A stretch of DNA of 64,000 nt, from the IMG/VR virus record IMGVR_UViG_3300036985_002638, positions 9,845-73,844 of that record. One strand, written 5' to 3'. The translations under genes and the position numbers were made by a program. Source of the stretch: a virus. This document shows, one piece after another, positions 7,131 through 39,020 of this stretch. The notes under the pieces were generated by a model. That model was not told the DNA's origin. It searched no databases and saw only the letters and a program-made list of their open reading frames with translations. Positions within the stretch are counted from its first letter, which is position 1. Every line of letters starts with the position of its first letter.

Positions 7131-10100
7131 ATGCCTGAAGATAAAGGAAAAAGTGTTAAAGCACCTAAAAGTAAATCTAATGATGATTTTGCTCCTCAAT
7201 TAGTTAAAAGCAAATCTGAAATACCAAAAAACGCTGTACTTAAAATTGATTCTGACGGCGGAGAGTATTGGGAAGTTGAGACTAAGCATGAAGAGACTAA
7301 GAAAAAGATGTATCCGCCTTCTAGCGGAAAAAAAAGAACAGGGACTCCAAGAAAAAAAGACCCTGAAAAGTCTTCTACATTTGGGTCAACTATACAGCGA
7401 TATAAATTACCTCCTCCAGAAGTAATACCTCCTAAGCAAACAGGTTTGTATGGAGGTATTAGTACTTATGAAAAAATAGACCCTGCTGCTCAATGGGGAG
7501 CTGATTATGGAATAACAACATTTACATTTCCTGATGAGTATGGAAGATATACTAATACATCAAGAACTACAAATATTGATAAAGAGGGAAATGAAATAGC
7601 TTACGATTTAGCTAATCCATTAAATAGTTTTAAAGACGGAAAGTTTACTCCAACTCTTACAGGCAGAACTATTGATGATGTAAGAAACGAATGGTCTCTC
7701 GTGGGTATGTCTAAGCCAACGGATTATAGTGGAAATAAAGCTAACCCTGATTATAAAGGAAGTTTAATGATGCCTGGAACTAAAGCTACAAGAGTAGCTG
7801 GTGGTGGCGGCGGAGAGTTTAATCAAAGAAATATCGCAAATGTTCCGAATGCTTTAGATAAAGTTCCAATAGGATATATTGAACAAAAATACGATACTCA
7901 AGGAAATCCTATTGTTACTCCAAATGTAGGAGTTCAAATGGATACAAAAAATATAACTCCTTTAAGAAAAGGAGAAATGGAAGTAGGTAGAATGTACAAT
8001 ATAGAGAATCCTATTGAGATTAAAGGTAAGTTTGCTAAAGGTGGTATTGTAAGTAAGATTAAAGGATATTATGATGGAGGTCCTGTCTACAATCCTAATA
8101 TGAATATTGATGGAACTTATGGGGACTCAAATAGTTCTTATAAGCCAATAGATACATTTGGAAGTGGCGTAGTTGGAATGAATGATCAATATACTGCTCA
8201 AAACAATATGCAAGCTAAAAAGGCTATAGATGAAAATAAAAAGAAAGCTAATCAACAAAAAGCTAGAAATGTAGCCAATGGAATAGGAGAAGGAATGGGA
8301 GGCATAGGTTCAGCTTATTATAATTCACAACCCGCACAAAATGAAGGAGAATCTGCAAGAAACGCAGGATTAGCAGCCGCTTCTCAAATGGGGCCAATAG
8401 GAGGAATGATTGGAGGAATTGCCGCAATAGGAGATAAGATAGGAAAACCTATTAGAAATAGAAGTGAAAAGGTTGATGCTAGTGGAGAATTACTAGATGA
8501 AGGTAAAGCTAAAAGAAATGCTGCTATTGGAATAACTTTTAGTCCATCTAAGAGATTAACTTACGAAGGAGGATTAACTGATGTTACAGGACAAAAATAC
8601 ATTGATTCTATTGAAAATAAAACAAAATCTCAGTTAGCTGAAGTAAATGCTGCTAACACTGCATCTAAACAACAACAAGCTATACTAGCTAGAAATAACC
8701 AAGAAGAGAATCCTACATTAACTAATCCTTATGATTTGACGGGAGCGACATTTGATAAAAATCAAAATATGATTTTAGCTGATGGACAACAATTTGATAA
8801 AAACCGTCCTATGATGAATAAAGGAGGTATAGTTGGTAAAATCAAAAATATGTATGCTGACGGCGGAGAAATTAAAGGTAAAGGAACTGCTAAATCAGAC
8901 AGTATAATGGCTGAAGTAAAAGAAGGTTCATTTGTAGTGCCTGCCGAGAATGCAGAATTAGCAAAAGGTATTCGTAAACTATATTTAAAAGCTCCTAATA
9001 AAAAAGCTAATCTTAAACAAGAAGAAGGTGAAGCAGTAAAACTATCTAATGGAGAACATTTATTTACTCCTGAAGAGAATGAATACTTAGAATCTATTGG
9101 TATTGAATTAGAAGATTTAGCTCCTAACTCAGAAGAGAATAATGAAGAGATGATAATGGGCGGTATGCTAAAAAGAGCAGATGGCGGTTTAGTTGAAGGA
9201 GAGGGAGACCCTTTAATTCCTTATAGCAAATCAATAGTTCCTTTAGTAAACAAAAAAGATTCTGCGGCTTTTCAAACGGGATACATGGAAGCAAATCCAA
9301 GAAATACCATTGTAGATAAATACGGAAATGTAGCTTATCCATCAGGTTTATTAAAGTCAGGAAGCGAAATGATGAAAGAAGTGTCTGAAAGTAATAAAAA
9401 ATTCGCATTAGAAATGAATAGTCCAGAAAAAGCTGGAATGTACGCTGCTTATTTAGCTAATCAAGAAAAGTATAAAAAAGGAGTAAGCGCAGGCATGAAT
9501 TTGACTAATCAAGATGTTATAGATATTGCTAAAGATAAAATAGAAGGTTACTCTTTCCCTATTGACCGATTATCTCCTGTAGACCAAAAAAGAATCCAAA
9601 AAGCGATGGTAGACCTTGGCACATCAAAAAAAGCAGATGGCGGTAAGATTATGGCTCCTAAAATTAAAAAATATGCCGCAGGTGGAGATGTTGTTGATGG
9701 AGAACCTGAAATTAAAACTTCTAAAATAGAAGGCAGAAGAAACTCTACTGGAAATAAGGATTTTGATACTCAAATAGATGAATTATCTAAAAAAGAGTAT
9801 TCTAAAGTAGAAGACGTTAAAAGTGATATAGATAAATTACAGAGCTTACAAGAAAAATATAGTTCATTGTATGGAAAAAATAGCGAAGAGATAGCTCTTA
9901 CTATTCAGAAATTACATAAAACCGTTCCTGTTGTTGAAAAAAATGAAAGTAATTATAAAAGAGATTCTGAAATAAATAAAAATATAGAACTTGATAAAAA
10001 AGAGTTAAAAGAAATGGGTGCTAGCGATGCTCAGATTAAAGAGTATGAAACCGAGGCAACTACAGGTAATAATAAATATTTTGATAAATATAGAAATGAA

Positions 10101-29938: not shown

Positions 29939-30205
29939 TTAAAATAATAATGCTTTATCCGTGTATAGGTTAACTCTATTCATATTCTTCTTGTGGTACT
30001 TTCTGATAGCTATTTTACGTTCACTTACTGCATTACCGTGGGTGTGGATAGTTCCTAACTTATTAATGGTTAGTTTGAATGTTTCTGCTTTAGAAAACAT
30101 GATATTCATCGCGCCGATGTGTCGCATGATAACACACTTTATCTGCTCTTCCGTGTACTCAGGATGCTTTTCTTTTAGTTTATGTAGTAGTTGAGCGTTT
30201 AGCAT
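29939..30205 (-). CDS. HU/IHF-like small DNA-binding protein
   Basis: Helix-helix then LTINKLGTIH, basic arm. Confidence 0.45.
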   Translation of the reverse strand: MLNAQLLHKLKEKHPEYTEEQIKCVIMRHIGAMNIMFSKAETFKLTINKLGTIHTHGNAVSERKIAIRKYHKKNMNRVNLYTDKALLF

Positions 30206-30828
30206 TACACGGTTACTTTTAAATCTTTGTAATACTTAATACCATTTACTACCTTACCATCTTCTAATGAGTCAGAATTAGCTTTTAGATACTCTTTTAC
30301 TTTACTTTCATCTACCATTAAGAACTCTTTAGGAACTGAGTTAATATCTACTACTTCAAATGTCCAAGGCCTTCTTACTTTAGATATTACTTCTATTTCA
30401 ATAGGAGCTTCTTCAAACACTGGCTCAATACCAATTTCTGCCATAGCAGCTAACTCTTCTTCTTTAGCTTTTCTTTCAGCGTCTTTTAATCTAATCCAAG
30501 CTATCTTTTCATTTTTAAGATGCTTTAATGCTTCTTCTGAAGACTCAGATACATAAGCCGCCGCCGAGTCAATAGCTTTACCTTTCTCAAAATAAGGTTT
30601 CTTTTCTGCTACTCTAACAGACTCTACTGCCTTAATAAGTTCATTCACTTTACCCATTTGGTTCTCACAGACTGCTAAACTATTCTCATCAGTTACTTTG
30701 ATTTGCAGGCAGGTTTCCGCCGCTTTGTCGAGTTGTAATTTTACATTCTCAAATTTAAGAAGAGATGACTTTAACTCAGGAGTTTGTACTATCAATTCTT
30801 GTAGTGTTACTTTTTCTTTCTTTGCCAT
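30205..30828 (-). CDS. Coiled-coil phage protein
   Basis: C-terminal WTFEVVDINSVPKEFLMVDESKV...VNGIKYY motif common in phage recombination modules. Confidence 0.5.
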   Translation of the reverse strand: MAKKEKVTLQELIVQTPELKSSLLKFENVKLQLDKAAETCLQIKVTDENSLAVCENQMGKVNELIKAVESVRVAEKKPYFEKGKAIDSAAAYVSESSEEALKHLKNEKIAWIRLKDAERKAKEEELAAMAEIGIEPVFEEAPIEIEVISKVRRPWTFEVVDINSVPKEFLMVDESKVKEYLKANSDSLEDGKVVNGIKYYKDLKVTV

Positions 30829-30831
30829 GGT

Positions 30832-31170
30832 TTATTTTTTTAGTGATTTTAAAAACGAAGTTAATTCTTTAGCCAACAAGGCATTATTATATTGTGATGA
30901 TTCTATTTGATATAAAGCACTCCTTAATCCTCTTTTAGTTTGAGTCTCAAGACTTGTGCCTTCTCCTTTTAGGCAGATAAATCTATCCCAAGGTATCTTC
31001 ACTTCTTTTCTTTTCTTCATAACTACAAAGTGATCTATTTTAACATCTAAAACAGTAAAACAACCGTCCATTTCAGATATATGAACTTGACTTCCTGGGA
31101 TACAAGGTTTTTTGTTTTTAACCAAAACTCCAGAACTGTAATAATACCATGGATTATAATATGTACTCAT
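30832..31170 (-). CDS. Hypothetical protein
   Basis: 112 aa downstream of a promoter motif. Confidence 0.5.
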   Translation of the reverse strand: MSTYYNPWYYYSSGVLVKNKKPCIPGSQVHISEMDGCFTVLDVKIDHFVVMKKRKEVKIPWDRFICLKGEGTSLETQTKRGLRSALYQIESSQYNNALLAKELTSFLKSLKK

Positions 31171-31246
31171 AATTTCTAATTTTAATAGTTAAACGTATAA
31201 AAATAAATAAGGTTACAAAAAATTGAATAAATAATCAAATTATTTT

Positions 31247-31666
31247 TTATTCTTCTCTATTAAGCCTAAATTTATGGTATTGAGCATCTAATTTAGGAAT
31301 AGGTATTTCATCAGGAAACACTCTTTTATCAGCATCAGCTTTAATATTAAGCCATATCTCAGCCATCTTACATTTACAGTAGTCTTGGTATATCTTCTTA
31401 TGCTTATCTTTATCTTTAATACTTCTATCTTGGATGACTAAGTAGTCTGCTTTACAATTCTCTAATACTTCTTTCTTGATATTTTCATCAATAGTCATAT
31501 CATTACCTGCCCATTTAAGTAAATCGTATAGCATAGCTCCTGAGTGTGTGTTTGTTATTATTCCACAACCTTCATTATCGTAAAGGTTATAGAACTCTTT
31601 TAGGCATATAGCGGATAAAGCTAATCCTATTGGGGATTTAAAATCTACTTTAGAACTCGTCTCCAC
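31247..31666 (-). CDS. Hypothetical protein
   Basis: 139 aa, overlaps the end of dnaB. Confidence 0.5.
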   Translation of the reverse strand: METSSKVDFKSPIGLALSAICLKEFYNLYDNEGCGIITNTHSGAMLYDLLKWAGNDMTIDENIKKEVLENCKADYLVIQDRSIKDKDKHKKIYQDYCKCKMAEIWLNIKADADKRVFPDEIPIPKLDAQYHKFRLNREE

Positions 31667-33026
31667 TTGCGCCTCCTTTTATTATATCGTTTGAATCAGG
31701 AGCATAGTCTTTGAATGCCGAGTATTTACCCTCAAATCTTACATAAACCTTTCCCGTGCTTCCGTATCTGTTTTTAGCTACGTTAATTTCACACAGTCCA
31801 CGCAAATCCATTCCTGTTTTTGGATCTGTTGCATCAGAATTATAGTAATCAGCCCTGTAAAGTAACCAAATTTGTACAGCGTTGGCCTCTATTGCTCCCG
31901 AGTCTTTCAAATCAGACATTAAAGGATATGGCGGATTTCTCTTCTCTACATCTCTTGACAACTGAGATAATTCAATCATGCAACAATTTTCAGTTTTAGA
32001 AGTTTCAAGTAACCCATTACATCTATCTCCAACTTGTTCTTCTTTAGATTTTCCAACCGTCTCTTCTTTGGTATTCTTCATTAACTGTAAATAATCAATC
32101 ATTACAGTCATAAGTGTACTTAATGGAATGCCTAGTTGTTTACGAACCTTTCTTATCTTAGTTCTCATATATTGCCAAGTAATTCCAGGAGTGTCATCAA
32201 TAACTAGGTTTCTCTTAATCTTATCTCTTAGTTTTTTAATCCTTACTAAATCTTCATCAGATACATTTCCGCTTCTAATCTGCCAACTATTAATCTCTAG
32301 GCAGTTAGCCCAAATGTTTTTCATTAATTGTTTTGCGGGCATCTCTAAAGAAAATATAATTAACGGCTCTCCTTTATCAACAGCTATATGTTTAGTTATG
32401 TTAATAATTAAGCTAGTCTTTCCCATCCCTGGCCTTGCTCCAACAACAATAACTTCCTGCTTTGCTCCCGATGTAATTTTATTCAAGTCTTTTATACCAT
32501 AAGAGTGTCCGATTGTTTCCGATTTACTATTCTGAGCTTCCATTAACTCTTCAAAAGCTTCATCAAAAATATCTTCAACGTGTCTTTCTACTGATAGATT
32601 GTTCTTAATGCTTTCAATATCCGACACTATTGACTTTAAATCTTCAATAGAACTATTTACATCAGTTATCTCATTACTAAGCTCTGAGTGAACGCTATGA
32701 AGTATAGGTAGCATTTTTCTCTTAGTGTACTCATCGAATATATCATTTACATACTCTGATACGTTTTTAGCAATAGCATAATTTGGTTCCGACACTTCCA
32801 ATCCAATCTCTTTCTTGTTACAGCCAGACTTAATTAACATATTAGAAAGTAGATAAACGTCAGACTTTCTACCTTTATCGTGGTTATGTTTTATAATTTT
32901 ATACTTAACCTTGTTAAAATTTGTGGACCACAATTCATCAAATATCAAATGGTGACATGACTCGAATAAATTTTCATTATCTGCATATAAATTTAGTACC
33001 GCTCTTTCTTTCTCTTTTAATGTCAT
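31650..33026 (-). CDS. dnaB: Replicative DNA helicase DnaB
   Basis: GARPGMGKT, FSLEM, IDYLQL, LSQLSR, DLKDSGAIE, AKNRYG. Confidence 0.95.
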   Translation of the reverse strand: MTLKEKERAVLNLYADNENLFESCHHLIFDELWSTNFNKVKYKIIKHNHDKGRKSDVYLLSNMLIKSGCNKKEIGLEVSEPNYAIAKNVSEYVNDIFDEYTKRKMLPILHSVHSELSNEITDVNSSIEDLKSIVSDIESIKNNLSVERHVEDIFDEAFEELMEAQNSKSETIGHSYGIKDLNKITSGAKQEVIVVGARPGMGKTSLIINITKHIAVDKGEPLIIFSLEMPAKQLMKNIWANCLEINSWQIRSGNVSDEDLVRIKKLRDKIKRNLVIDDTPGITWQYMRTKIRKVRKQLGIPLSTLMTVMIDYLQLMKNTKEETVGKSKEEQVGDRCNGLLETSKTENCCMIELSQLSRDVEKRNPPYPLMSDLKDSGAIEANAVQIWLLYRADYYNSDATDPKTGMDLRGLCEINVAKNRYGSTGKVYVRFEGKYSAFKDYAPDSNDIIKGGASGDEF

Positions 33027-33028
33027 AG

Positions 33029-33406
33029 TTAACTTCTAAAAAATGATGATGTTTGCTCCACTTTTTCTTGTATTTTATTCTTATCAACAAACCAAACCGA
33101 TAAAGCTTTCCCTTTCCAATTAAGAACAGGTGAACCATTAGCTCCTTTCCATTCCATAGTAGAATAGTATTCAAAAAACTTATTCGCGGATTCTAAGGTA
33201 TATCCTTTTGATTTAAAGTATTCTCTTACGTCTTCTACTCTTGGAGCAGGAGCAGGTTTCTTCTTTTCTTTCTTAGGTTTACTAAAATACTCTTTAATAG
33301 CTTCGTGGGTAGTCTTAGAATACTTTTGTTGTTTCTTAGTTCTATCCGCCAAAGTGAAATTGTAAATAAATATTTCTCCTTCTTGTGTTACTTCTAGTTT
33401 TGTCAT
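33029..33406 (-). CDS. Replication initiator/helicase-loader-like protein
   Basis: PRVEDVREYF...KFFEYY..MEWK...NWKGKA..W resembles a phage replication protein C-terminal domain; immediately upstream of dnaB. Confidence 0.55.
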   Translation of the reverse strand: MTKLEVTQEGEIFIYNFTLADRTKKQQKYSKTTHEAIKEYFSKPKKEKKKPAPAPRVEDVREYFKSKGYTLESANKFFEYYSTMEWKGANGSPVLNWKGKALSVWFVDKNKIQEKVEQTSSFFRS

Positions 33407-33425
33407 TTTTTAATTCAAGTTTGAG

Positions 33426-33707
33426 TTATAAATTAAATACTTTATCTAAATTGATTTGTTGATACCATTGCAAATAACTTACATCAACTTTTTTAGGCTC
33501 GTTAATCAATAACTGACTAGCTTTACTTTTACTTAAATGCTTTCTGTTAATTATCCAAGCATTAGCCGATTCATTAAAGTTAACGAGTGTAGGAACATTT
33601 GTGATATTAAATAACAACTTTTTTCTAAATGCTAGTATCTGATTTTCAAATATTAGGTAGTTAGAGTAGGTTATAAAATAATCGTTGTTTGGTTTTGCTT
33701 CGTTCAT
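33426..33707 (-). CDS. Hypothetical protein adjacent to the cassette array
   Basis: 93 aa, in the position where intI sits in an integron. Confidence 0.5.
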   Translation of the reverse strand: MNEAKPNNDYFITYSNYLIFENQILAFRKKLLFNITNVPTLVNFNESANAWIINRKHLSKSKASQLLINEPKKVDVSYLQWYQQINLDKVFNL

Positions 33708-33782
33708 TATCAGTTAGTTAAGGTGGTTGATTGCGTGTAGCGAGTAGTTAGCAGTAATAAAACTCCCACGCTCCTGTGCGTA

Positions 33783-34043
33783 TCAACCAGCGTTAAAAGA
33801 GCCTAATATTACGCCTCTTACTTGTTCCTCATTTGCTATCCCTATTTCTTTACAAAATATAGATGTTTCTTTTAAAGCCCAATCACTCCATTTGCTATTA
33901 GGTTCTTTGTAAACCCTACCGTCAGGATGTATTGTTTTAGCATCAGTTTCATTTTCAGCGCAAACGATACATGAGTCATAAGTATCATAATCGTTGTTGT
34001 CATTTTGGGTTAATAAGTATATTTTCATTTTAATTATTTTCAT
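33783..34043 (-). CDS. Cassette 1: small conserved phage protein
   Basis: YLLTQNDNNDYDTYDSCIVCAENE...VILGSFNAG. Confidence 0.65.
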   Translation of the reverse strand: MKIIKMKIYLLTQNDNNDYDTYDSCIVCAENETDAKTIHPDGRVYKEPNSKWSDWALKETSIFCKEIGIANEEQVRGVILGSFNAG

Positions 34044-34090
34044 TTTAAGTTTTATGTTTTACATTTCAAATTGCTATTCTGTTTTACTAC

Positions 34091-34166
34091 TGCTAACAGC
34101 ACCTAATAAACAGGCGGACATCAACTATATTTATACCGCCCGTCCATTAGCTGCAAAACGTTAGTT
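34091..34166 (+). repeat. attC-like site 1 (76 bp)
   Basis: TGCTAAC-AGCACCTAATAAACAGGCGG...CCGCCCGTCCATTAGCTGC-AAAAC-GTTAGTT. Confidence 0.75.
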
Positions 34167-34215
34167 TCAATAAAATAAACCATTGATGTTTACTTTTCTG
34201 ATGTTAATATAAGCG

Positions 34216-34521
34216 CTACTTACCGTACTTTTCCTTTAATCTTTCTAATTGCTCCAATTCCCTTCTTTTAATTTCTTCATTTCTTTTGTTGGTTTCAGCT
34301 ATTCTAAAACTAAACTCTTCGTCTGTTTCTAATCTTTGATTAAAAGCAGTAATTGAAACATACGCATTTCCATAATCATCATAAGCTTCTATGTCAATAT
34401 AATTAGCTCCTAATTTTTCAAGTTCATTAATATCTTCTTTTAATTTGCTTATTTCAATTCCATAAGTCCAGTTAACTGAGTAATTAACTTCAAATTTTCT
34501 TAATTGTTTTTCCTTATTCAT
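34216..34521 (-). CDS. Cassette 2: hypothetical protein
   Basis: 101 aa with C-terminal RLETDEE...LERLKEKY coiled coil. Confidence 0.65.
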   Translation of the reverse strand: MNKEKQLRKFEVNYSVNWTYGIEISKLKEDINELEKLGANYIDIEAYDDYGNAYVSITAFNQRLETDEEFSFRIAETNKRNEEIKRRELEQLERLKEKYGK

Positions 34522-34555
34522 ATTTTTTTATTTTAATTTGGTTTATTTTACTGTA

Positions 34556-34642
34556 AACTAACACAACCTAACAAACATTTGAGCGTTACTGCTAATATGT
34601 ATCAGTTGGTCTACAAACGTCTGTTAGCCCCGTCCGTTAGTA
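34556..34642 (+). repeat. attC-like site 2 (87 bp)
   Basis: AACTAAC..CTAACAAACATTTG...CAAACGTCTGTTAG..GTTAGTA. Confidence 0.7.
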
Positions 34643-34659
34643 CCAATAGCCTTTGATGT

Positions 34660-35007
34660 TTACGCTTCGGTTGTTGATATAGGTGGATTTGGTAATCGCA
34701 TCCAATGTGTTACTGTTCCAAGTAAATTATGATTTGTATCAGATTTAAACTTATTATCTTGTAAAAACCAAACTCCCTGATAAACACATTGGTTGAATTT
34801 TGGAGCATCGGCATTAAATAATAATACAAATTCAACTCTTTCCGTTGGTAATTTATCTTTTACATTAAACCATTTATTTTTTTGGTTTGAGTATTCAACT
34901 ATTAAAGCATCAATACACTTTAATACAGTTTCTTTTGGATGAACTAATGGAAAGTTGTAATAAGCAACTTCTACTATTTTTTCAGCGTATTGTTTTGAAT
35001 CTATCAT
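34660..35007 (-). CDS. Cassette 3: DUF551-like protein
   Basis: KWFNVKDKLP...VTHWMRLPNPP. Confidence 0.75.
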   Translation of the reverse strand: MIDSKQYAEKIVEVAYYNFPLVHPKETVLKCIDALIVEYSNQKNKWFNVKDKLPTERVEFVLLFNADAPKFNQCVYQGVWFLQDNKFKSDTNHNLLGTVTHWMRLPNPPISTTEA

Positions 35008-35047
35008 AATTGTATGTATTTGTTTTTAAATTTAATTTGGCTACTGG

Positions 35048-35102
35048 TACTAACAGCACCTAATAAACAGCAAGCCGATTTATTAGCTGCAAAACGTTAA
35101 TA
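35048..35102 (+). repeat. attC-like site 3 (55 bp)
   Basis: TACTAAC-AGCACCTAATAAA...TTTATTAGCTGC-AAAAC-GTTAATA; shares 21-nt and 18-nt blocks with site 1. Confidence 0.75.
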
Positions 35103-35107
35103 TATAC

Positions 35108-35135
35108 TTAAACGTATATAAAAATAAAAGGTTAC
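35108..35135 (-). promoter_or_regulatory. GTAACC-N15-CGTTTAA promoter pointing into the cassette array
   Basis: One of 14 copies of the bipartite motif. Confidence 0.65.
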
Positions 35136-35157
35136 GTTTATTTGTAAATATTTAAAA

Positions 35158-35403
35158 TTATAAATGAGTGTCAAGCAATTTAAGCATTTCTAGCCAATTC
35201 TCTTTAGTTTTAAAATAGATTTCCATCGTGGACGCACCAGCTTTTTCTCTTAGTAAGTAAATATCTAATCCATAGAGTGAAGTATCGTCTTTGTAGGCGT
35301 AATAGCCCGCGAAATCAATCTGATTAAAAGAAAACATAACATATCCATCTACATATACTTTTACTCTTCCGTTGTAAATTTTAAGTTCGCGTTTATGTTT
35401 CAT
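35158..35403 (-). CDS. Hypothetical protein
   Basis: 81 aa, in operon. Confidence 0.5.
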   Translation of the reverse strand: MKHKRELKIYNGRVKVYVDGYVMFSFNQIDFAGYYAYKDDTSLYGLDIYLLREKAGASTMEIYFKTKENWLEMLKLLDTHL

Positions 35404-35407
35404 GGTA

Positions 35408-35752
35408 TTAATCTTTTTTGTTAATAGCTATCATAACATTTTGTAATAATTTTCCAGATATTTCTCCTATAATATAAGATGCGTGGATTAACTTATTATA
35501 CTTACTATCAGCTTCTTTTTTTTCATCAGGCTTCATCATTTTACGTATAGGACTAGCTTTAATCATCTCACTATCTTTCTTTAGCATCTCTATAATACCT
35601 CTAGCGTGTAACATGGCTGCTAAATCATTATCAATACTATTCTTAGTTTCTAATTCATATCCTTCTTTAGATATAGTTAGTTTGTAGTCAATAGAACCTT
35701 CTATTACTAAGTTTGTTGGAGACTCCGCCGACTTGTTTTCTTGTTTTTTCAT
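35408..35752 (-). CDS. Hypothetical protein
   Basis: 114 aa. Confidence 0.5.
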   Translation of the reverse strand: MKKQENKSAESPTNLVIEGSIDYKLTISKEGYELETKNSIDNDLAAMLHARGIIEMLKKDSEMIKASPIRKMMKPDEKKEADSKYNKLIHASYIIGEISGKLLQNVMIAINKKD

Positions 35753-35891
35753 ATTTATTTGTTTTTATAGTTATTTGCTAAGCATTTAAAGCATTGTAAG
35801 ACTCCTTTTATAATATTCATGTCAGAAGTAAATACTGGGTGTAAGCTATACTCTGTAGGCTTTTTACAGATATAACATACTTTTGTTTCTT

Positions 35892-38516
35892 TTACTTCTT
35901 TTTCCATTTGTTCTTCATTTCTAATTCGTAGTATATAGTACTGTATTGCCCCTTAGATGCGAAGGTAGTGTCATATCCTTTAGATTTCAAATATTCTAAC
36001 TCTTTTTTATTACAAGGTTCTAATGATATAATATCCGCGCATTGTTGTTTAGTGTAAGTATTATTTTGAATGTCGTGTCCTAAATCAGATATATATTTCA
36101 ACTGCGCGGATGTAGCTGCTTCTTGCATCTTTTTCCATCCAAATTGTTTAGCAGGAGGTAAATCAATTAATATAATCTTTTCGTCTTTCTTATGTAAGTT
36201 TTCTACATGAGCAACTCTTCTTTGTCTTTCTTCTAATATTTGTTGTTTTTTAGCATCAGTAGTAAATACTCTATCTTCTAAATTAAGAACTCTATCTAAC
36301 TCCCAACAATTTATAAGCTTGTGTCTTGATGTCGAATCAACGAAGTCCAGGATAGTACAAACTTGACCGTATTTATCAACGTATTCTTTTGATTTTAATC
36401 TAGTACCTCTTCCTACCGATTGAACAAATTTAACTAATGATTTTGTAGGAGATACATTACCAATACACCCTACTTCTGGATGATTAAATCCTGTAGTAAG
36501 CACCATTACATTAGTTAATACTTGTATCTTACCCTTCTTAAAATCAGATATTGTTTGTTTTCTTTCAGGAGTTACTTTTTCGTCTCCAACAACAGGTTTA
36601 CAACTAATTCCGTATTCGTTAAATATTTCAGATAAATCAACCGCGTGTTGTATATCAACACAAAAGAATATCCCTTGTTTTCCTGTAGCGTGTTTGATAT
36701 AACTTTCAACTACTAATCTATTTCTTTTAGGTATATTTACTTCTGTAGCTAAATCCTTTGTATTAAGCTCTCCAGCAGTTGTTTTTACATTGTCTAATGA
36801 AACGTCTGTCTTAATTCTAATACCGTCTAATTGGCATAGGTAATTGTTTTTAATACCATCTGCAATATTGTATTCAAATGTTATTTTATCAAATAAATTA
36901 CCTAGAGATAAGCCGTCCATACGATACGGAGAAGCTGTCAATCCAACCATTAACTTAGGTTTGAAGTAATTTAAAGGCATGATATAAGTTCGACTCATAT
37001 ATTTATGGCACTCGTCCACAATAATTAGATCGAAATAATCTTCAAGTATCTTATCGAGTCTCCTGTAGAGTGTTTGTGCGCTGGCTACGATGACTTCTGC
37101 GTCTATTTTGAACGTATCTGCTTTAATAACGCCCATTCTAAACTGATTATTCTTATTCTCGAAATGACACTTAGCTCCGTTAACCCAATTAATGAATCCT
37201 ATTCCTTCAACGTGTCCAGCCATTTCTTCATCGAATTTATTTTCAATGAATGCAAGTGCTGATTGTTCGATTAGTTCTTCTGTATCAGCGATAAATAGAA
37301 CCCTTTTAGCTTTTAAGCGTTCAGATAGTTCTACTGCAACTTTAGTTTTGCCCGTATTGTGATGTACCGTAAAGTCACCTGTTAAGTATAAATGATTTCC
37401 ATCTAATTCAAACCCATAAAAATCATCTTCTGTTAATGGCTCTACAGAAAATCCAGTAACTAAAACATCTTTTATTTGTCTTCTAGGACTCGCTTGTTTC
37501 CTTTTTATTTTACAAGGAATTTTATCAGTATGTCCGCTTATGTATATTCTATAATATAATCCTTCAAAATTAATTGATTTTATTTTTGCTATTTTTTCTT
37601 TTTTATAAGCGCAAAACCCTAAAGACCTAGCTAAAAATAAAATATCGTCAGCTAAAGAATTGTATTTAGAAGATATTTCATATCCGCATCCATCGTGATT
37701 TAAGCTTCCATCAGAATCAATTAATCCCGCTAATAATTGCAATCTAGCATCCTCGTTTCCTGTTAATAATAGGCTTGGTATTATTTTCTCCCCAGTAATA
37801 CACATACTTTTGCATATTTCAGATATGCTATTCTTATCTTTTCTAGCCTGATGTCCATTTGGCATTGTAAATGAAAAGAACATACACCTATCTTCAGGAA
37901 CAGTTTTTTTAATAGTTATTTCTGGATGGTTTATTGAACAAAACTCTTTAAATTCCCCAAAGAACCAATTTTCAACTTCAATATCAGGAATAGTTATTTG
38001 AGGAGTATTGAATGTTCCGTCTCCTAACCATAATCCTATAAAATAAGGATGAGTAGGACTTCCTTTATCTATACTGCTTATTATTGGCTTTCTGTAAAGT
38101 TTATATAAATGTTTTTTTGATTTACTCCAATCTAAATAATCCTTAACTGTTACGTTTTCTATTTTATTAGGATTATATTTTTCTCTATGAGGTTTTAATG
38201 TAGTTCTTTTTAAAGATAAAATATGGTTTTCGTTAACCATAAATGAATCTCCTTTAACTGGAGTTATTTTATACATCAACTCGTTACCTCTAGCTAAGTT
38301 TAATACGGTTCTTTCAGTAGAATCATCTCCCATTAATTTATCTCCAACAACAATATCCTGAACCATTTTAATAGTTCCGTCAAACATTATGATCGGAGTA
38401 TTTAGAGCATGGCATCCAGTAGCTAATACAAGTAATAGCTTATCATTACCATTCTTTAAATCATCTTCTATACAAGCTAACGCTTGTTCTTGATAAGGCC
38501 TCAAGTTCTTTACCAT
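35892..38516 (-). CDS. SF2 (DExH, ResIII/SSL2-like) helicase containing an intein
   Basis: LRPYQ, split Walker A ATG|TGKT, DECH, TASP, LTTGFN, QSVGRGTR. Confidence 0.9.
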   Translation of the reverse strand: MVKNLRPYQEQALACIEDDLKNGNDKLLLVLATGCHALNTPIIMFDGTIKMVQDIVVGDKLMGDDSTERTVLNLARGNELMYKITPVKGDSFMVNENHILSLKRTTLKPHREKYNPNKIENVTVKDYLDWSKSKKHLYKLYRKPIISSIDKGSPTHPYFIGLWLGDGTFNTPQITIPDIEVENWFFGEFKEFCSINHPEITIKKTVPEDRCMFFSFTMPNGHQARKDKNSISEICKSMCITGEKIIPSLLLTGNEDARLQLLAGLIDSDGSLNHDGCGYEISSKYNSLADDILFLARSLGFCAYKKEKIAKIKSINFEGLYYRIYISGHTDKIPCKIKRKQASPRRQIKDVLVTGFSVEPLTEDDFYGFELDGNHLYLTGDFTVHHNTGKTKVAVELSERLKAKRVLFIADTEELIEQSALAFIENKFDEEMAGHVEGIGFINWVNGAKCHFENKNNQFRMGVIKADTFKIDAEVIVASAQTLYRRLDKILEDYFDLIIVDECHKYMSRTYIMPLNYFKPKLMVGLTASPYRMDGLSLGNLFDKITFEYNIADGIKNNYLCQLDGIRIKTDVSLDNVKTTAGELNTKDLATEVNIPKRNRLVVESYIKHATGKQGIFFCVDIQHAVDLSEIFNEYGISCKPVVGDEKVTPERKQTISDFKKGKIQVLTNVMVLTTGFNHPEVGCIGNVSPTKSLVKFVQSVGRGTRLKSKEYVDKYGQVCTILDFVDSTSRHKLINCWELDRVLNLEDRVFTTDAKKQQILEERQRRVAHVENLHKKDEKIILIDLPPAKQFGWKKMQEAATSAQLKYISDLGHDIQNNTYTKQQCADIISLEPCNKKELEYLKSKGYDTTFASKGQYSTIYYELEMKNKWKKK
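37356..38414 (-). mobile_element. Intein with LAGLIDADG homing endonuclease (353 aa)
   Basis: Starts CHALNTP, ends TVHHN followed by Thr; blocks IGLWLGDG and LAGLIDSDG. Confidence 0.93.
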
Positions 38517-38519
38517 ATA

Positions 38520-39020
38520 CTACTTACCTAATTTTTTAAGGTTACTGAATAGAGTTGCTACTACAGGAATATCTTTAATTCTGTTTCCTGTAACATTAGC
38601 ATGAGGGTAACAGTTTTCAATATCATTAAGACTATATTTAGGGTTGTTGTCTTCTATGTAATTAAATCTGTTTTTTTCTGATGTGAATGTTAAATATCTA
38701 TCAGCCACTTCCTTATCTTGTTTAGAGAAGTTATGAATAACAGCAATATTTTGTGATGGAATAGTTAAATCTTTACTTAATAAATATAATACAGTAAAAT
38801 TCTTTTCAAACATCTCCGCGCCGTCTGTAGTAATGTATATTGGAGATTTACTTTCTATATGCCATGGAATAACATCTTCTTTTACTTCTTCCCAATCTAA
38901 AGAATCTTCTATTATCCATTTGGCAATAGCTTCACATTCTTTATAAGCATAGTAATAGTTCTTGTTACTTACTCCAATTTCTACAATGATTCCTGTTTTT
39001 TTATGTTTGTACTTTTTCAT
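38520..39020 (-). CDS. Hypothetical protein
   Basis: 166 aa downstream of a promoter motif and a palindrome. Confidence 0.55.
   Translation of the reverse strand: MKKYKHKKTGIIVEIGVSNKNYYYAYKECEAIAKWIIEDSLDWEEVKEDVIPWHIESKSPIYITTDGAEMFEKNFTVLYLLSKDLTIPSQNIAVIHNFSKQDKEVADRYLTFTSEKNRFNYIEDNNPKYSLNDIENCYPHANVTGNRIKDIPVVATLFSNLKKLGK

Follow-up and report, generated by a model that had tools for sequence, protein, structure and literature searches.

The three single-gene units described here very probably form an array of three cassettes belonging to an integron-like system of gene capture, which is specific to phages and chromosomes of Bacteroidota and whose cassettes are inferred to be moved by a Xer/IntI-like recombinase. 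They lie within the 64,000 nucleotides of viral DNA that we analysed, hereafter the window (positions 9,845 to 73,844 of IMG/VR record IMGVR_UViG_3300036985_002638). We observed a family of hairpin sites with covariation, a constant array polarity, a conserved docking site, permutation of cassettes with breaks at TAAC, and mirror-image arrays in chromosomes; the catalytic role of the recombinase, its single-stranded substrate, a circular intermediate, the exact position of the cut and the supply of the enzyme in trans are inferred. An integron-like array was also the interpretation of the original prediction, which was made from the letters of the DNA alone, and our analysis supports it.

That prediction described three minus-strand units whose own ends are complementary, and a repeat search reproduced all of its coordinates, namely 33747-33763 with 34081-34097 (17 nt, 94%), 34165-34182 with 34539-34556 (18 nt, 89%) and 34636-34651 with 35039-35054 (16 nt, 94%). 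Each pair encloses one minus-strand ORF (Table 1). The products have 86 aa in cassette 1 (phrog_5444, function unknown; PHROG E 6e-16), 101 aa in cassette 2 (PHROG match phrog_25568, function unknown) and 115 aa in cassette 3 (Pfam DUF551, E 8e-10). The three hairpins fall within 1.1 kb, and the window meets the criterion for a CALIN, that is, at least two attC-type sites close together with no integrase nearby; its sites are members of a non-classical hairpin family. H3, whose sequence recurs in many viral contigs, is counted as the 5' part of cassette 3 according to our model of the unit. Two motifs were said to be common to sites 1 and 3, and both occur exactly twice in the window, above the chance expectation of about 0.01 and 0.15. 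Folding of both strands agreed with the proposed bottom-strand structure, as the intergenic hairpins are more stable on the minus strand (H1, -42.7 versus -28.9 kcal/mol on the plus strand; H2, -31.3 versus -21.5 kcal/mol), and across the hairpin family the suspected wobble bias amounts, inside the cassette arms, to 45 G.T wobbles on the gene-sense strand against 2 on the other. The phage promoter postulated at the distal end corresponds to a motif with 11 copies in the window, where 0.02 are expected, and the flank, this motif and the first hairpin are kept in relatives at 88% identity. Such a promoter could drive the whole array towards ORF0, a function that we infer and have not shown. Neither the region nor a single hairpin, used as DNA queries against the GenBank phage collection, gave a match.

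Table 1. Features of the cassette array and its borders (positions in the window).
Feature	Positions	Strand	Description
ORF0	33426..33707	-	Conserved 93-aa gene of unknown function, in place of the recombinase gene of relatives
Variant attI-like docking site (putative)	33708..33750	-	TAAC box (GTTA 33747-33750 on the plus strand) and conserved non-hairpin sequence up to the ORF0 start
Cassette 1	33748..34160	-	H1, X arm 34081-34092, ORF 33783-34043, Y arm 33751-33763; adjoins the docking site
Hairpin H1	34093..34164	-	attC-like, typical 70-nt type; R1 76.1 bits, E 4e-12
Cassette 2	34161..34636	-	H2, X arm 34539-34556, ORF 34216-34521, Y arm 34165-34182
Hairpin H2	34558..34640	-	attC-like, divergent variant; R1 52.9 bits, E 1.7e-7
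Cassette 3	34637..35096	-	H3, X arm 35039-35050, leader, ORF 34660-35007, Y arm 34640-34651
Hairpin H3	35050..35100	-	attC-like, short type; R1 60.5 bits, E 5e-9
Promoter-like motif	35108..35135	-	GTAACC, 15-16 nt, MGTWTAA; immediately precedes the first hairpin

The description of the hairpins as attC-like agrees with a conserved and covarying family, for which our covariance model R1 has 135 matches in 59 sources; by motif search and R1, many viral contigs hold same-strand arrays of up to seven or more hairpins. Within the family 94% of cells are paired, compensatory changes are found in 13 of the 14 pairs, and the covariation score is 0.72 versus 0.18 in shuffles. Each hairpin has a TAAC/GTTA box, a GTTTT spacer that stays unpaired, an inner box that is conserved and contains a G.G mismatch, and a tip that varies, and this architecture and the covariation fit attC, with its AAC/GTT core boxes, one-strand folding and variable tip. 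Extrahelical bases of the classical type were not identified; the GTTTT bulge, the G.G mismatch and a fixed G.T wobble stand in their place. Strong complementarity between a cassette's own arms was present in 41% of 78 unique cassettes, compared with 1% when arms were paired with those of other cassettes, and there is a conserved wobble at base pair 7.

Tyrosine recombinases, or any PF00589 gene, are absent from the whole 73.8-kb record, which is 97% complete, just as the original prediction had no integrase in view. It looked for the enzyme elsewhere, and close relatives of the window phage (DnaB 97% identical) as well as host-type chromosomes do encode one, its supply in trans being inferred. 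In these relatives a gene for a 277-aa Xer/IntI-like tyrosine recombinase stands at the array end, where the window has ORF0, and the catalytic residues R, K, H, R, H and Y are all present. A PF00589 gene was found in four of ten hairpin-bearing records; three showed it directly, and in the fourth it lay about 4.7 kb downstream of the hairpins detected there. Conversely, in 74 loci fetched by the recombinase, all 43 R1 matches lie upstream of it on the same strand, and generic TAAC...GTTA hairpins numbered 103 in this arrangement versus 18, 26 and 16 in three control classes. The polarity of the array relative to the recombinase is constant across recombinases that are from 41% to 100% identical. 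The link between array and recombinase could partly reflect conserved gene order within one phage lineage. Between array and recombinase, 55-70 nt before the start of the gene, about 29 of 30 recombinase loci have the sequence TAAC + TAYTATATGTA; it is kept among loci with recombinases 41-100% identical, and its left neighbour is always a different cassette arm. By its position and context this docking site qualifies as a putative functional analogue of attI, with no sequence homology to attI1. A repeat search upstream of distant recombinases was uninformative. In Polaribacter phage Freya_10, whose integrase is 31% identical, the upstream region shows no clear array of TAAC...GTTA hairpins.

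The recombinase is a member of the Xer/IntI branch. No NCBIfam model reaches its cut-off with this protein, and TIGR02249 matches it in two stretches only, again below cut-off. Where VchIntIA has 72 residues the recombinase has 29, and so, in contrast to the integrases of classical integrons, this enzyme of about 277 aa is without some 43 residues of the IntI-specific domain. Since that domain is missing, the system is not a classical integron, though integron-like in its working. Classical integron integrases read attC through the IntI-specific domain, and the lack of this attC-reading domain counts against the site recognition that we propose.

ORF0 takes the place of the recombinase in the window phage. 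It has 93 homologs of 45-92% identity, all about 91-98 aa long, and it never occurs together with the recombinase (0 of 30 and 0 of 77 loci), so that the two are mutually exclusive. In 25 viral loci, the region 35-45 nt upstream of the ORF0 family reads as a variable cassette arm, then TAAC, then the conserved non-hairpin sequence of Table 1. On a speculative view, ORF0 may be more than filler, as it excludes the recombinase at array ends and always lies behind its own variant docking site. We rejected the idea that it is a recombinase remnant, given that BLASTP found no similarity and that ORF0 is a conserved family in its own right. Its AlphaFold model has a pLDDT of 86; Foldseek against the PDB returned nothing at E 0.001 or better, and in a wide VIA search the best Z was 2.7, with no family that could be named.

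The original prediction placed the crossover at G|TT and proposed a comparison of related phages as a check. Such phages differ in cassette content and order with block boundaries at TAAC, and in near-identical phages that have been rearranged the breaks fall exactly at the TAAC/GTTA box, the position of the cut itself being an inference. In the phages L071 and L072, whose flanks are 100% and 99.9% identical, four common cassettes of 98-100% identity stand in different order, every block starts and ends at TAAC, and one cassette that is internal in L071 lies beside the docking site in L072. A further unit, 99.65% identical in two contigs, extends from TAAC to TAAC between unrelated flanks. Similarly, a phage contig that is 99% identical to the window downstream has another cassette and departs from the window at the TAAC box, and in three phages of the ORF0 type the cassette joined at TAAC is a different one each time. 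Excision, circles and cleavage can be inferred only from these comparative breaks at TAAC/GTTA, in the absence of any experimental or read evidence.

Homologous recombination alone could also shuffle such genes, with the hairpins and leaders as conserved regulatory intergenic elements, like the PeSLs of T4-type phages, and the neighbouring recombinase serving, for example, lysogeny or dimer resolution. Shuffling of the PeSL type is documented (PMC2839356), and several of our observations would suit it. Unrelated ORFs are found behind identical X arms and leaders, and the similarity stops at the start codon; the X arm, leader and Y arm of cassette 3, for instance, enclose four different ORFs in other phages. 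Hairpin tips and the cassettes on either side of them assort almost independently of one another; the tip shows only weak co-inheritance with the cassette downstream (15 of 67 pairs, versus 0 of 30 for the upstream cassette). Metagenome contigs break on the GTTA side of hairpins too, hence on both sides, and joints skip exactly the ORFs, as where the flanks of cassette 2 are joined without its ORF. Because the same X arm and leader stand before unrelated genes and contigs break on the GTTA side, we believe that homologous recombination also shapes the arrays. However, the junction between cassette and docking site shares with the hairpins only the 4-nt TAAC, yet is precise in about 29 recombinase and 25 ORF0 loci. 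Given that, that the latest events in L071 and L072 all break at the TAAC box and nowhere else in conserved halves of 14-18 nt, that the array polarity noted above recurs in bacterial chromosomes, and that it would not lead one to expect own-end arms with a fixed wobble, we consider homologous recombination unlikely to be the whole explanation and retain site-specific movement of cassettes as the preferred one.

The search for the same sites beside a tyrosine recombinase in Bacteroidota chromosomes, which had been suggested at the outset, was successful. A Flavobacterium chromosome encodes a 42%-identical recombinase beside at least 12 hairpins and about 20 one-gene cassettes. In the scan of bacterial genomes with a 17-nt motif we estimated about 140 chance matches, and we give weight solely to the skew across taxa and to the model-based follow-up. 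The chromosomal cassette genes are antisense to the folding strand and stand in the classical order of gene, then site, whereas in phage arrays the site precedes the gene; the inverted genes of the window, noted from the start, are thus opposite in orientation to chromosomal arrays of the same hairpin family.

This bears on a reading that the original prediction named as its own refutation, in which the hairpins and gene-flanking stems act only as structures of a polycistronic minus-strand mRNA, in processing, stability or presentation of the start codon, with no role in DNA recombination. In the phages the favoured folding strand is indeed the mRNA sense strand and G.U wobbles dominate; every hairpin is situated in a 5' leader, and in long hairpins the loop contains the ribosome-binding region and start codon. 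In chromosomes, however, the strand that folds better is the one antisense to the cassette genes. As the genes are reversed there, the strand asymmetry is a property of the DNA and not of the mRNA, and the RNA-only reading is disfavoured. It also leaves unexplained a docking site without a hairpin beside the recombinase gene and the TAAC-bounded permutation, and no Rfam family matches: a scan of positions 30000-39000 at E up to 10 gave nothing in the array except one chance-level match of 14.7 bits. We find it very improbable that RNA structure is all there is, although the hairpins could still have a secondary RNA role in phages.

Hairpins of this family are widespread among Bacteroidota genomes, and the flanks of some chromosomal copies are complementary to each other, as in solitary inserted elements. 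They might then be taken for a dispersed palindromic repeat of the REP or MITE kind, spread by a transposase encoded elsewhere and accumulating by chance between small phage genes. This we regard as scarcely credible, in that the copies cluster in arrays on one strand, each unit with a single gene, beside one recombinase family, that no transposase is seen in the arrays, and that entire gene-bearing units move.

We propose the following model for recombinase-mediated cassette capture. Read on the minus strand, the mobile unit would open with a hairpin site, followed by arm X, a leader and a single gene; arm Y, which is complementary to X, and the initial letters of the next TAAC box would complete it. 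The folded single strand of the hairpin would mimic the core site of the recombinase, and we infer that the Xer/IntI-like tyrosine recombinase cleaves that strand within the TAAC box. The unit would then be excised as a circle, where pairing of the X and Y arms lengthens the hairpin stem by 11-17 bp. With DNA parameters, modelled circle junctions are predicted to form one long stem of -22 to -27 kcal/mol versus -11 to -17 kcal/mol in the array (cassette 2, -27.0 versus -15.7; cassette 3, -22.2 versus -10.8). Finally, the circle would be inserted at the docking site adjoining the recombinase gene. The window phage has intact sites and a variant docking site, and its enzyme may come from a co-infecting relative or from a chromosomal system of the host; as the phage has no recombinase, its cassettes would be mobile only with the enzyme in trans. 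ORF0 may functionally substitute for the recombinase by binding the variant docking site and recruiting the recombinase of a host chromosomal array. Phages without recombinase could then draw on, or donate to, host cassettes, and the mirrored polarity would keep phage and host pools apart in expression. We offer this last idea as speculation that is more probably wrong than right, by a good distance.

Integrons, the standard model of bacterial gene capture, owe their definition to a single integrase clade that carries a special domain. The present system resembles classical and sedentary chromosomal integrons in its one-gene cassettes, in its imperfect palindromic sites with AAC/GTT core, unpaired spacer, inner box and variable tip, in the preferential folding of one strand, in a docking site beside the recombinase gene with cassettes joined at the core, in the permutation of cassette order between close relatives, and in a recombinase of the Xer/IntI branch; the window itself, with sites and no integrase, is CALIN-like. 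Unlike in classical integrons, the phage genes lie on the folding strand with the site before the gene, sometimes supplying its start codon, expression is inferred to start from a promoter at the far array end and not at the integrase end, and stem complementarity is 16-22 bp per cassette instead of 7. A Xer-type recombinase is also known to act on a folded single strand in CTX-phage, which XerCD integrates through a folded single-stranded attP. In contrast to the cassette arrays, that attP is a single integration site for the whole phage genome.

Clusters of attC sites, with methyltransferase cassettes and no integron integrase, have been described in virulent phages including a Polaribacter phage, where IntegronFinder detected them and bacterial IntI1 served to test them (Qi et al., 2023, PMC9892861). 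As far as the available part of that article goes, they share with the present arrays the phage-borne attC-type sites, the methyltransferase cassettes and a Bacteroidota host; in contrast to our system, the same part of the text has no phage-encoded recombinase, docking site or inverted gene polarity. Polaribacter phage P12002S, a sister of their Polaribacter phage, gave no R1 match. Similarly, the PeSLs of T4-type phages are conserved intergenic stem-loops that flank small accessory genes in hyperplastic regions and bring about modular shuffling (PMC2839356, PMC4122927). Unlike the hairpins described here, PeSLs are promoter and terminator motifs that act via homologous recombination, without a dedicated recombinase, docking site or own-end complementarity. 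The window hairpins fail the PeSL criterion, by which every repeat joins an early promoter to a terminator-like stem-loop, having no T run after them and a promoter-like motif only once, before the first hairpin. Our literature search, which was incomplete, turned up no account of a Xer-like cassette system that is encoded by phages or occurs in Bacteroidota.

Integron logic, with folded single-strand sites, a docking site and one-gene cassettes, thus appears to run on a shorter Xer-like enzyme, in a system carried by lytic-type phages and by Bacteroidota chromosomes with gene polarity mirrored between them. If confirmed, this would mean that hairpin-directed cassette capture works without the IntI domain, would provide a mechanism for the fast turnover of small accessory genes in environmental phages, and would add new single-strand recombination sites and enzymes. 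The window shows such an array without its recombinase and with a conserved partner gene that is unexplained. The cargo of the arrays includes methylases, Mom and DUF551 proteins, and some of these genes are likely to serve in counter-defence.

We conclude that the array in the window is genuine and that its place in an integron-like family, apparently undescribed, is well supported; it lacks a recombinase and has instead a conserved partner gene, ORF0. Every gene from 31 to 39 kb of the window lies on the minus strand in our ORF map, including three ORFs that are each enclosed by their own inverted arms (see table), for which a repeat search gave lengths of 16-18 nt and 89-94% complementarity. 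Read on the gene-sense strand, the hairpins between the ORFs start with TAAC and end with GTTA, and when both strands were folded the gene-sense strand folded much better than its opposite. Two long motifs common to sites 1 and 3 have exactly two occurrences each in 64 kb. Since the arms, the strand-biased hairpins and the twice-occurring motifs were all confirmed, the original prediction, which had described single-gene units with own-end complementary arms, hairpins between them that favour one strand and motifs present in both site 1 and site 3, was accurate. A 32-nt direct repeat, 81% identical, was also seen just before the Y arms, the second arms, of cassettes 2 and 3 (window 34180-34211 and 34650-34681); it codes for the C-terminus in cassette 3 and lies past the stop codon in cassette 2, where it looks like the relic of a replaced gene.

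Features of the window array and of related arrays, with their positions
Feature	Position	Strand	Remark
Cassette ORF	33783-34043	minus	own inverted arms around ORF
Cassette ORF	34216-34521	minus	own inverted arms around ORF
Cassette ORF	34660-35007	minus	own inverted arms around ORF
Promoter-like motif (GTAACC, 15-16 nt, MGTWTAA)	11 sites, including 26518, 31189, 35108, 40423, 51733	each on one strand	0.02 expected
Long hairpins	L029:6164-7538; L047:10913-11038; L025:2165-2292; others		start codon in loop
Flavobacterium array (L276, L277)	G010:C1:2399067-2438394		about 36 kb; same hairpins beside 350-aa recombinase

The hairpins belong to a widespread family. One 18-nt hairpin half has an exact match in 40 viral contigs, and a covariance model (R1) built from an alignment of 41 distinct hairpins found 135 copies in 59 sources, including the three window hairpins (76, 60 and 53 bits), arranged on one strand in arrays that reach seven copies or more. 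The consensus consists of the TAAC/GTTA box, a G(T/G)TTT spacer that stays unpaired on the 5' side, an inner stem that is conserved and contains a G.G mismatch, and a tip whose length varies from 8 to about 90 nt; no family in Rfam matches it. Across 94 copies, 94% of cells are paired, compensatory changes occur at 13 of 14 pairs and the covariation score is 0.72 against 0.18 for shuffles and about 0.1 for slid controls, albeit in an alignment that was fitted to R1 and so leans towards structure.

The same hairpins occur in bacterial chromosomes. When bacterial genomes were scanned for a 17-nt half-site, matches fell mostly in Bacteroidota; as we estimate that about 140 would be expected by chance, we put weight on R1, which recovered 65 full hairpins in the first 80 loci from that scan. 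The original prediction had proposed looking in Bacteroidota hosts for the sites beside a tyrosine recombinase, and a complete Flavobacterium chromosome holds such a pair: a 350-aa enzyme, 42% identical to the phage enzyme over its full length and longer at the N-terminus by about 70-90 residues, adjoins at least 12 R1 hairpins over 36 kb. After the recombinase come about 20 cassettes of one gene each, and these genes occupy the strand opposite to the one that folds, a polarity that agrees with the classical integron, of which the phage arrays are the mirror image. Palindromes containing TATATGTA lie between this array and the recombinase. Two more Bacteroidota genomes share the Flavobacterium layout and one has a phage-like layout. 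Hairpins that fold best on the gene-sense strand, as in the window, might be RNA structures only; however, the chromosomal hairpins favour the strand antisense to their cassette genes, so the strand asymmetry belongs to DNA and RNA structure is removed as the sole explanation. A secondary RNA role in phages remains plausible. In hairpins of a long class (116-132 nt), the loop contains the start codon together with the ribosome-binding region, and the 3' arm is coding sequence for the first 15-25 residues of diverse proteins, methylases included. The shared N-terminal stretch ends, for example, LGAV or LNIGAV, in proteins, DNA methylases among them, that are otherwise unrelated. Separately, a Saprospiraceae metagenome-assembled genome (G012) carries a 301-aa recombinase of the same family in at least five places on several contigs, all with the same score; a hairpin stands immediately upstream of one copy, and the gene may belong to a mobile or duplicated element.

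In relatives, four of ten hairpin-bearing records encode a PF00589 gene, directly downstream of the array in three and about 4.7 kb past the last detected hairpin in the fourth. The record G004 reads array, recombinase, 124-aa gene, DnaB, and the window reads array, ORF0, 125-aa gene, DnaB; in contigs whose DnaB is 97% identical to that of the window, the recombinase occupies the ORF0 position. Among 74 loci fetched by recombinase (41-100% identity), each of the 43 R1 matches is upstream of that gene and shares its strand, and generic TAAC...GTTA hairpins number 103 in that arrangement against 18, 26 and 16 in three control classes. A conserved, non-hairpin docking site, TAAC then TAYTATATGTA, stands 55-70 nt before the recombinase start with an always different cassette arm on its left, a layout matching the attI site of integrons. 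The enzyme has the full catalytic residue set; it is closest to archaeal XerA, XerD and IntI, every match falling below the model cut-off, and, unlike classical IntI, it is without about 43 residues of the IntI-specific domain.

Comparison of relatives indicates that cassettes move. The arrays of two contigs, L071 and L072, with flanks 100% and 99.9% identical, have four cassettes in common (98-100% identity) in a different order, TAAC marking the start and stop of every block; one of these cassettes has a hairpin after it in L071 and adjoins the docking site in L072. Another unit, 99.65% identical in two unrelated contigs, spans exactly TAAC to the next TAAC. As judged from shared blocks, the mobile unit comprises hairpin, X arm, leader, gene and Y arm, and exchange is inferred to lie within the folding strand's 5' box, comparable to exchange on the bottom strand of classical attC sites. 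The crossover predicted between G and TT holds to the extent that breaks fall in the TAAC box, but the exact nucleotide is unresolvable. When cassettes were delimited by neighbouring hairpins, strong complementarity between own arms was present in 41% of the 78 unique ones, compared with 1% for arms paired across cassettes. Pairs inside arms comprise 373 Watson-Crick pairs and G.T wobbles, 45 on the sense and 2 on the opposite strand, with one fixed wobble between G at +7 after GTTA (74%) and T at -7 before TAAC (92%). For the window cassettes, Y arm, hairpin and X arm were joined in the order expected at the junction of an excised circle and folded with DNA parameters; each junction formed one continuous stem (-22 to -27 kcal/mol; in the array, -11 to -17), and the other strand always folded less well. 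The hairpin tip is weakly linked to the downstream cassette (15/67 pairs; upstream, 0/30), unrelated genes are preceded by the same X arm and leader with similarity ending at the start codon, and metagenome contigs show unitig breaks and depth spikes at hairpins, with joints that omit exactly ORF1 or ORF2. The tip linkage, reused leaders and contig breaks indicate that homologous exchange at the conserved non-coding framework also acts, on top of any site-specific process. The recombination mechanism itself is inferred from comparative evidence only.

No tyrosine recombinase was found anywhere in the 73.8-kb record, which is 97% complete, extending the original prediction that none was visible. 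ORF0 as a recombinase remnant was ruled out: it belongs to a conserved family, in which 93 homologs are 91-98 aa long and 45-92% identical to it. Its AlphaFold model is confident (pLDDT 86), and a fold search with it gave no match. In 25 viral loci, 35-45 nt upstream of the family member, a variable arm meets TAAC, which leads into a conserved sequence akin to the docking site linked to the recombinase. Hairpin boxes number 50 upstream on the same strand against 5 downstream, and ORF0 and recombinase never share a locus (0/30 and 0/77). The window and the loci L004 and L022 have the ORF0 junction in common with three different cassettes joined at TAAC, so cassette turnover has continued in recombinase-less lineages. 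The family (window 33426-33707; loci L281-L310) is found at array ends, in every case preceded by a variant docking site. At the window junction, a second inverted repeat with arms of about 20 nt (33726-33790) encloses the last Y arm; its plus strand is favoured (-25.8 vs -19.4 kcal/mol for minus), and it is not present in L004.

The system resembles an integron in how it works, and the window resembles a CALIN, but the system fails two defining tests of the classical integron, namely the IntI domain and, in phages, gene-then-site polarity. Clusters of attC sites in virulent phages, recombined by bacterial IntI1, have been reported (Qi et al., 2023; PMC9892861); the section consulted mentions neither a recombinase encoded by phages nor a docking site nor an inverted gene polarity. 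PeSL cassettes (PMC2839356) are the closest analogue among systems based on homologous recombination, and our literature search found no description of the present cassette system. The near-identical, cultured Polaribacter phages Freya_1 to Freya_10 (MT732463-MT732472) differ in length by up to 5 kb and carry 0-4 kb of small genes before an integrase 31% identical to the relatives' recombinase; no clear hairpin array was seen in Freya_10.

The window cassettes encode one DUF551 protein and two proteins of PHROG families of unknown function, and the cargo of related arrays includes N6/N4 methylases, Mom and ParB-N proteins. One of the 11 window copies of a promoter-like motif stands ahead of the first hairpin and, by inference, could drive the array towards ORF0. 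Nearby, an 874-aa helicase-like ORF (window 35892-38516) appears, by eye from its translation only, to be interrupted by an intein-like insert.
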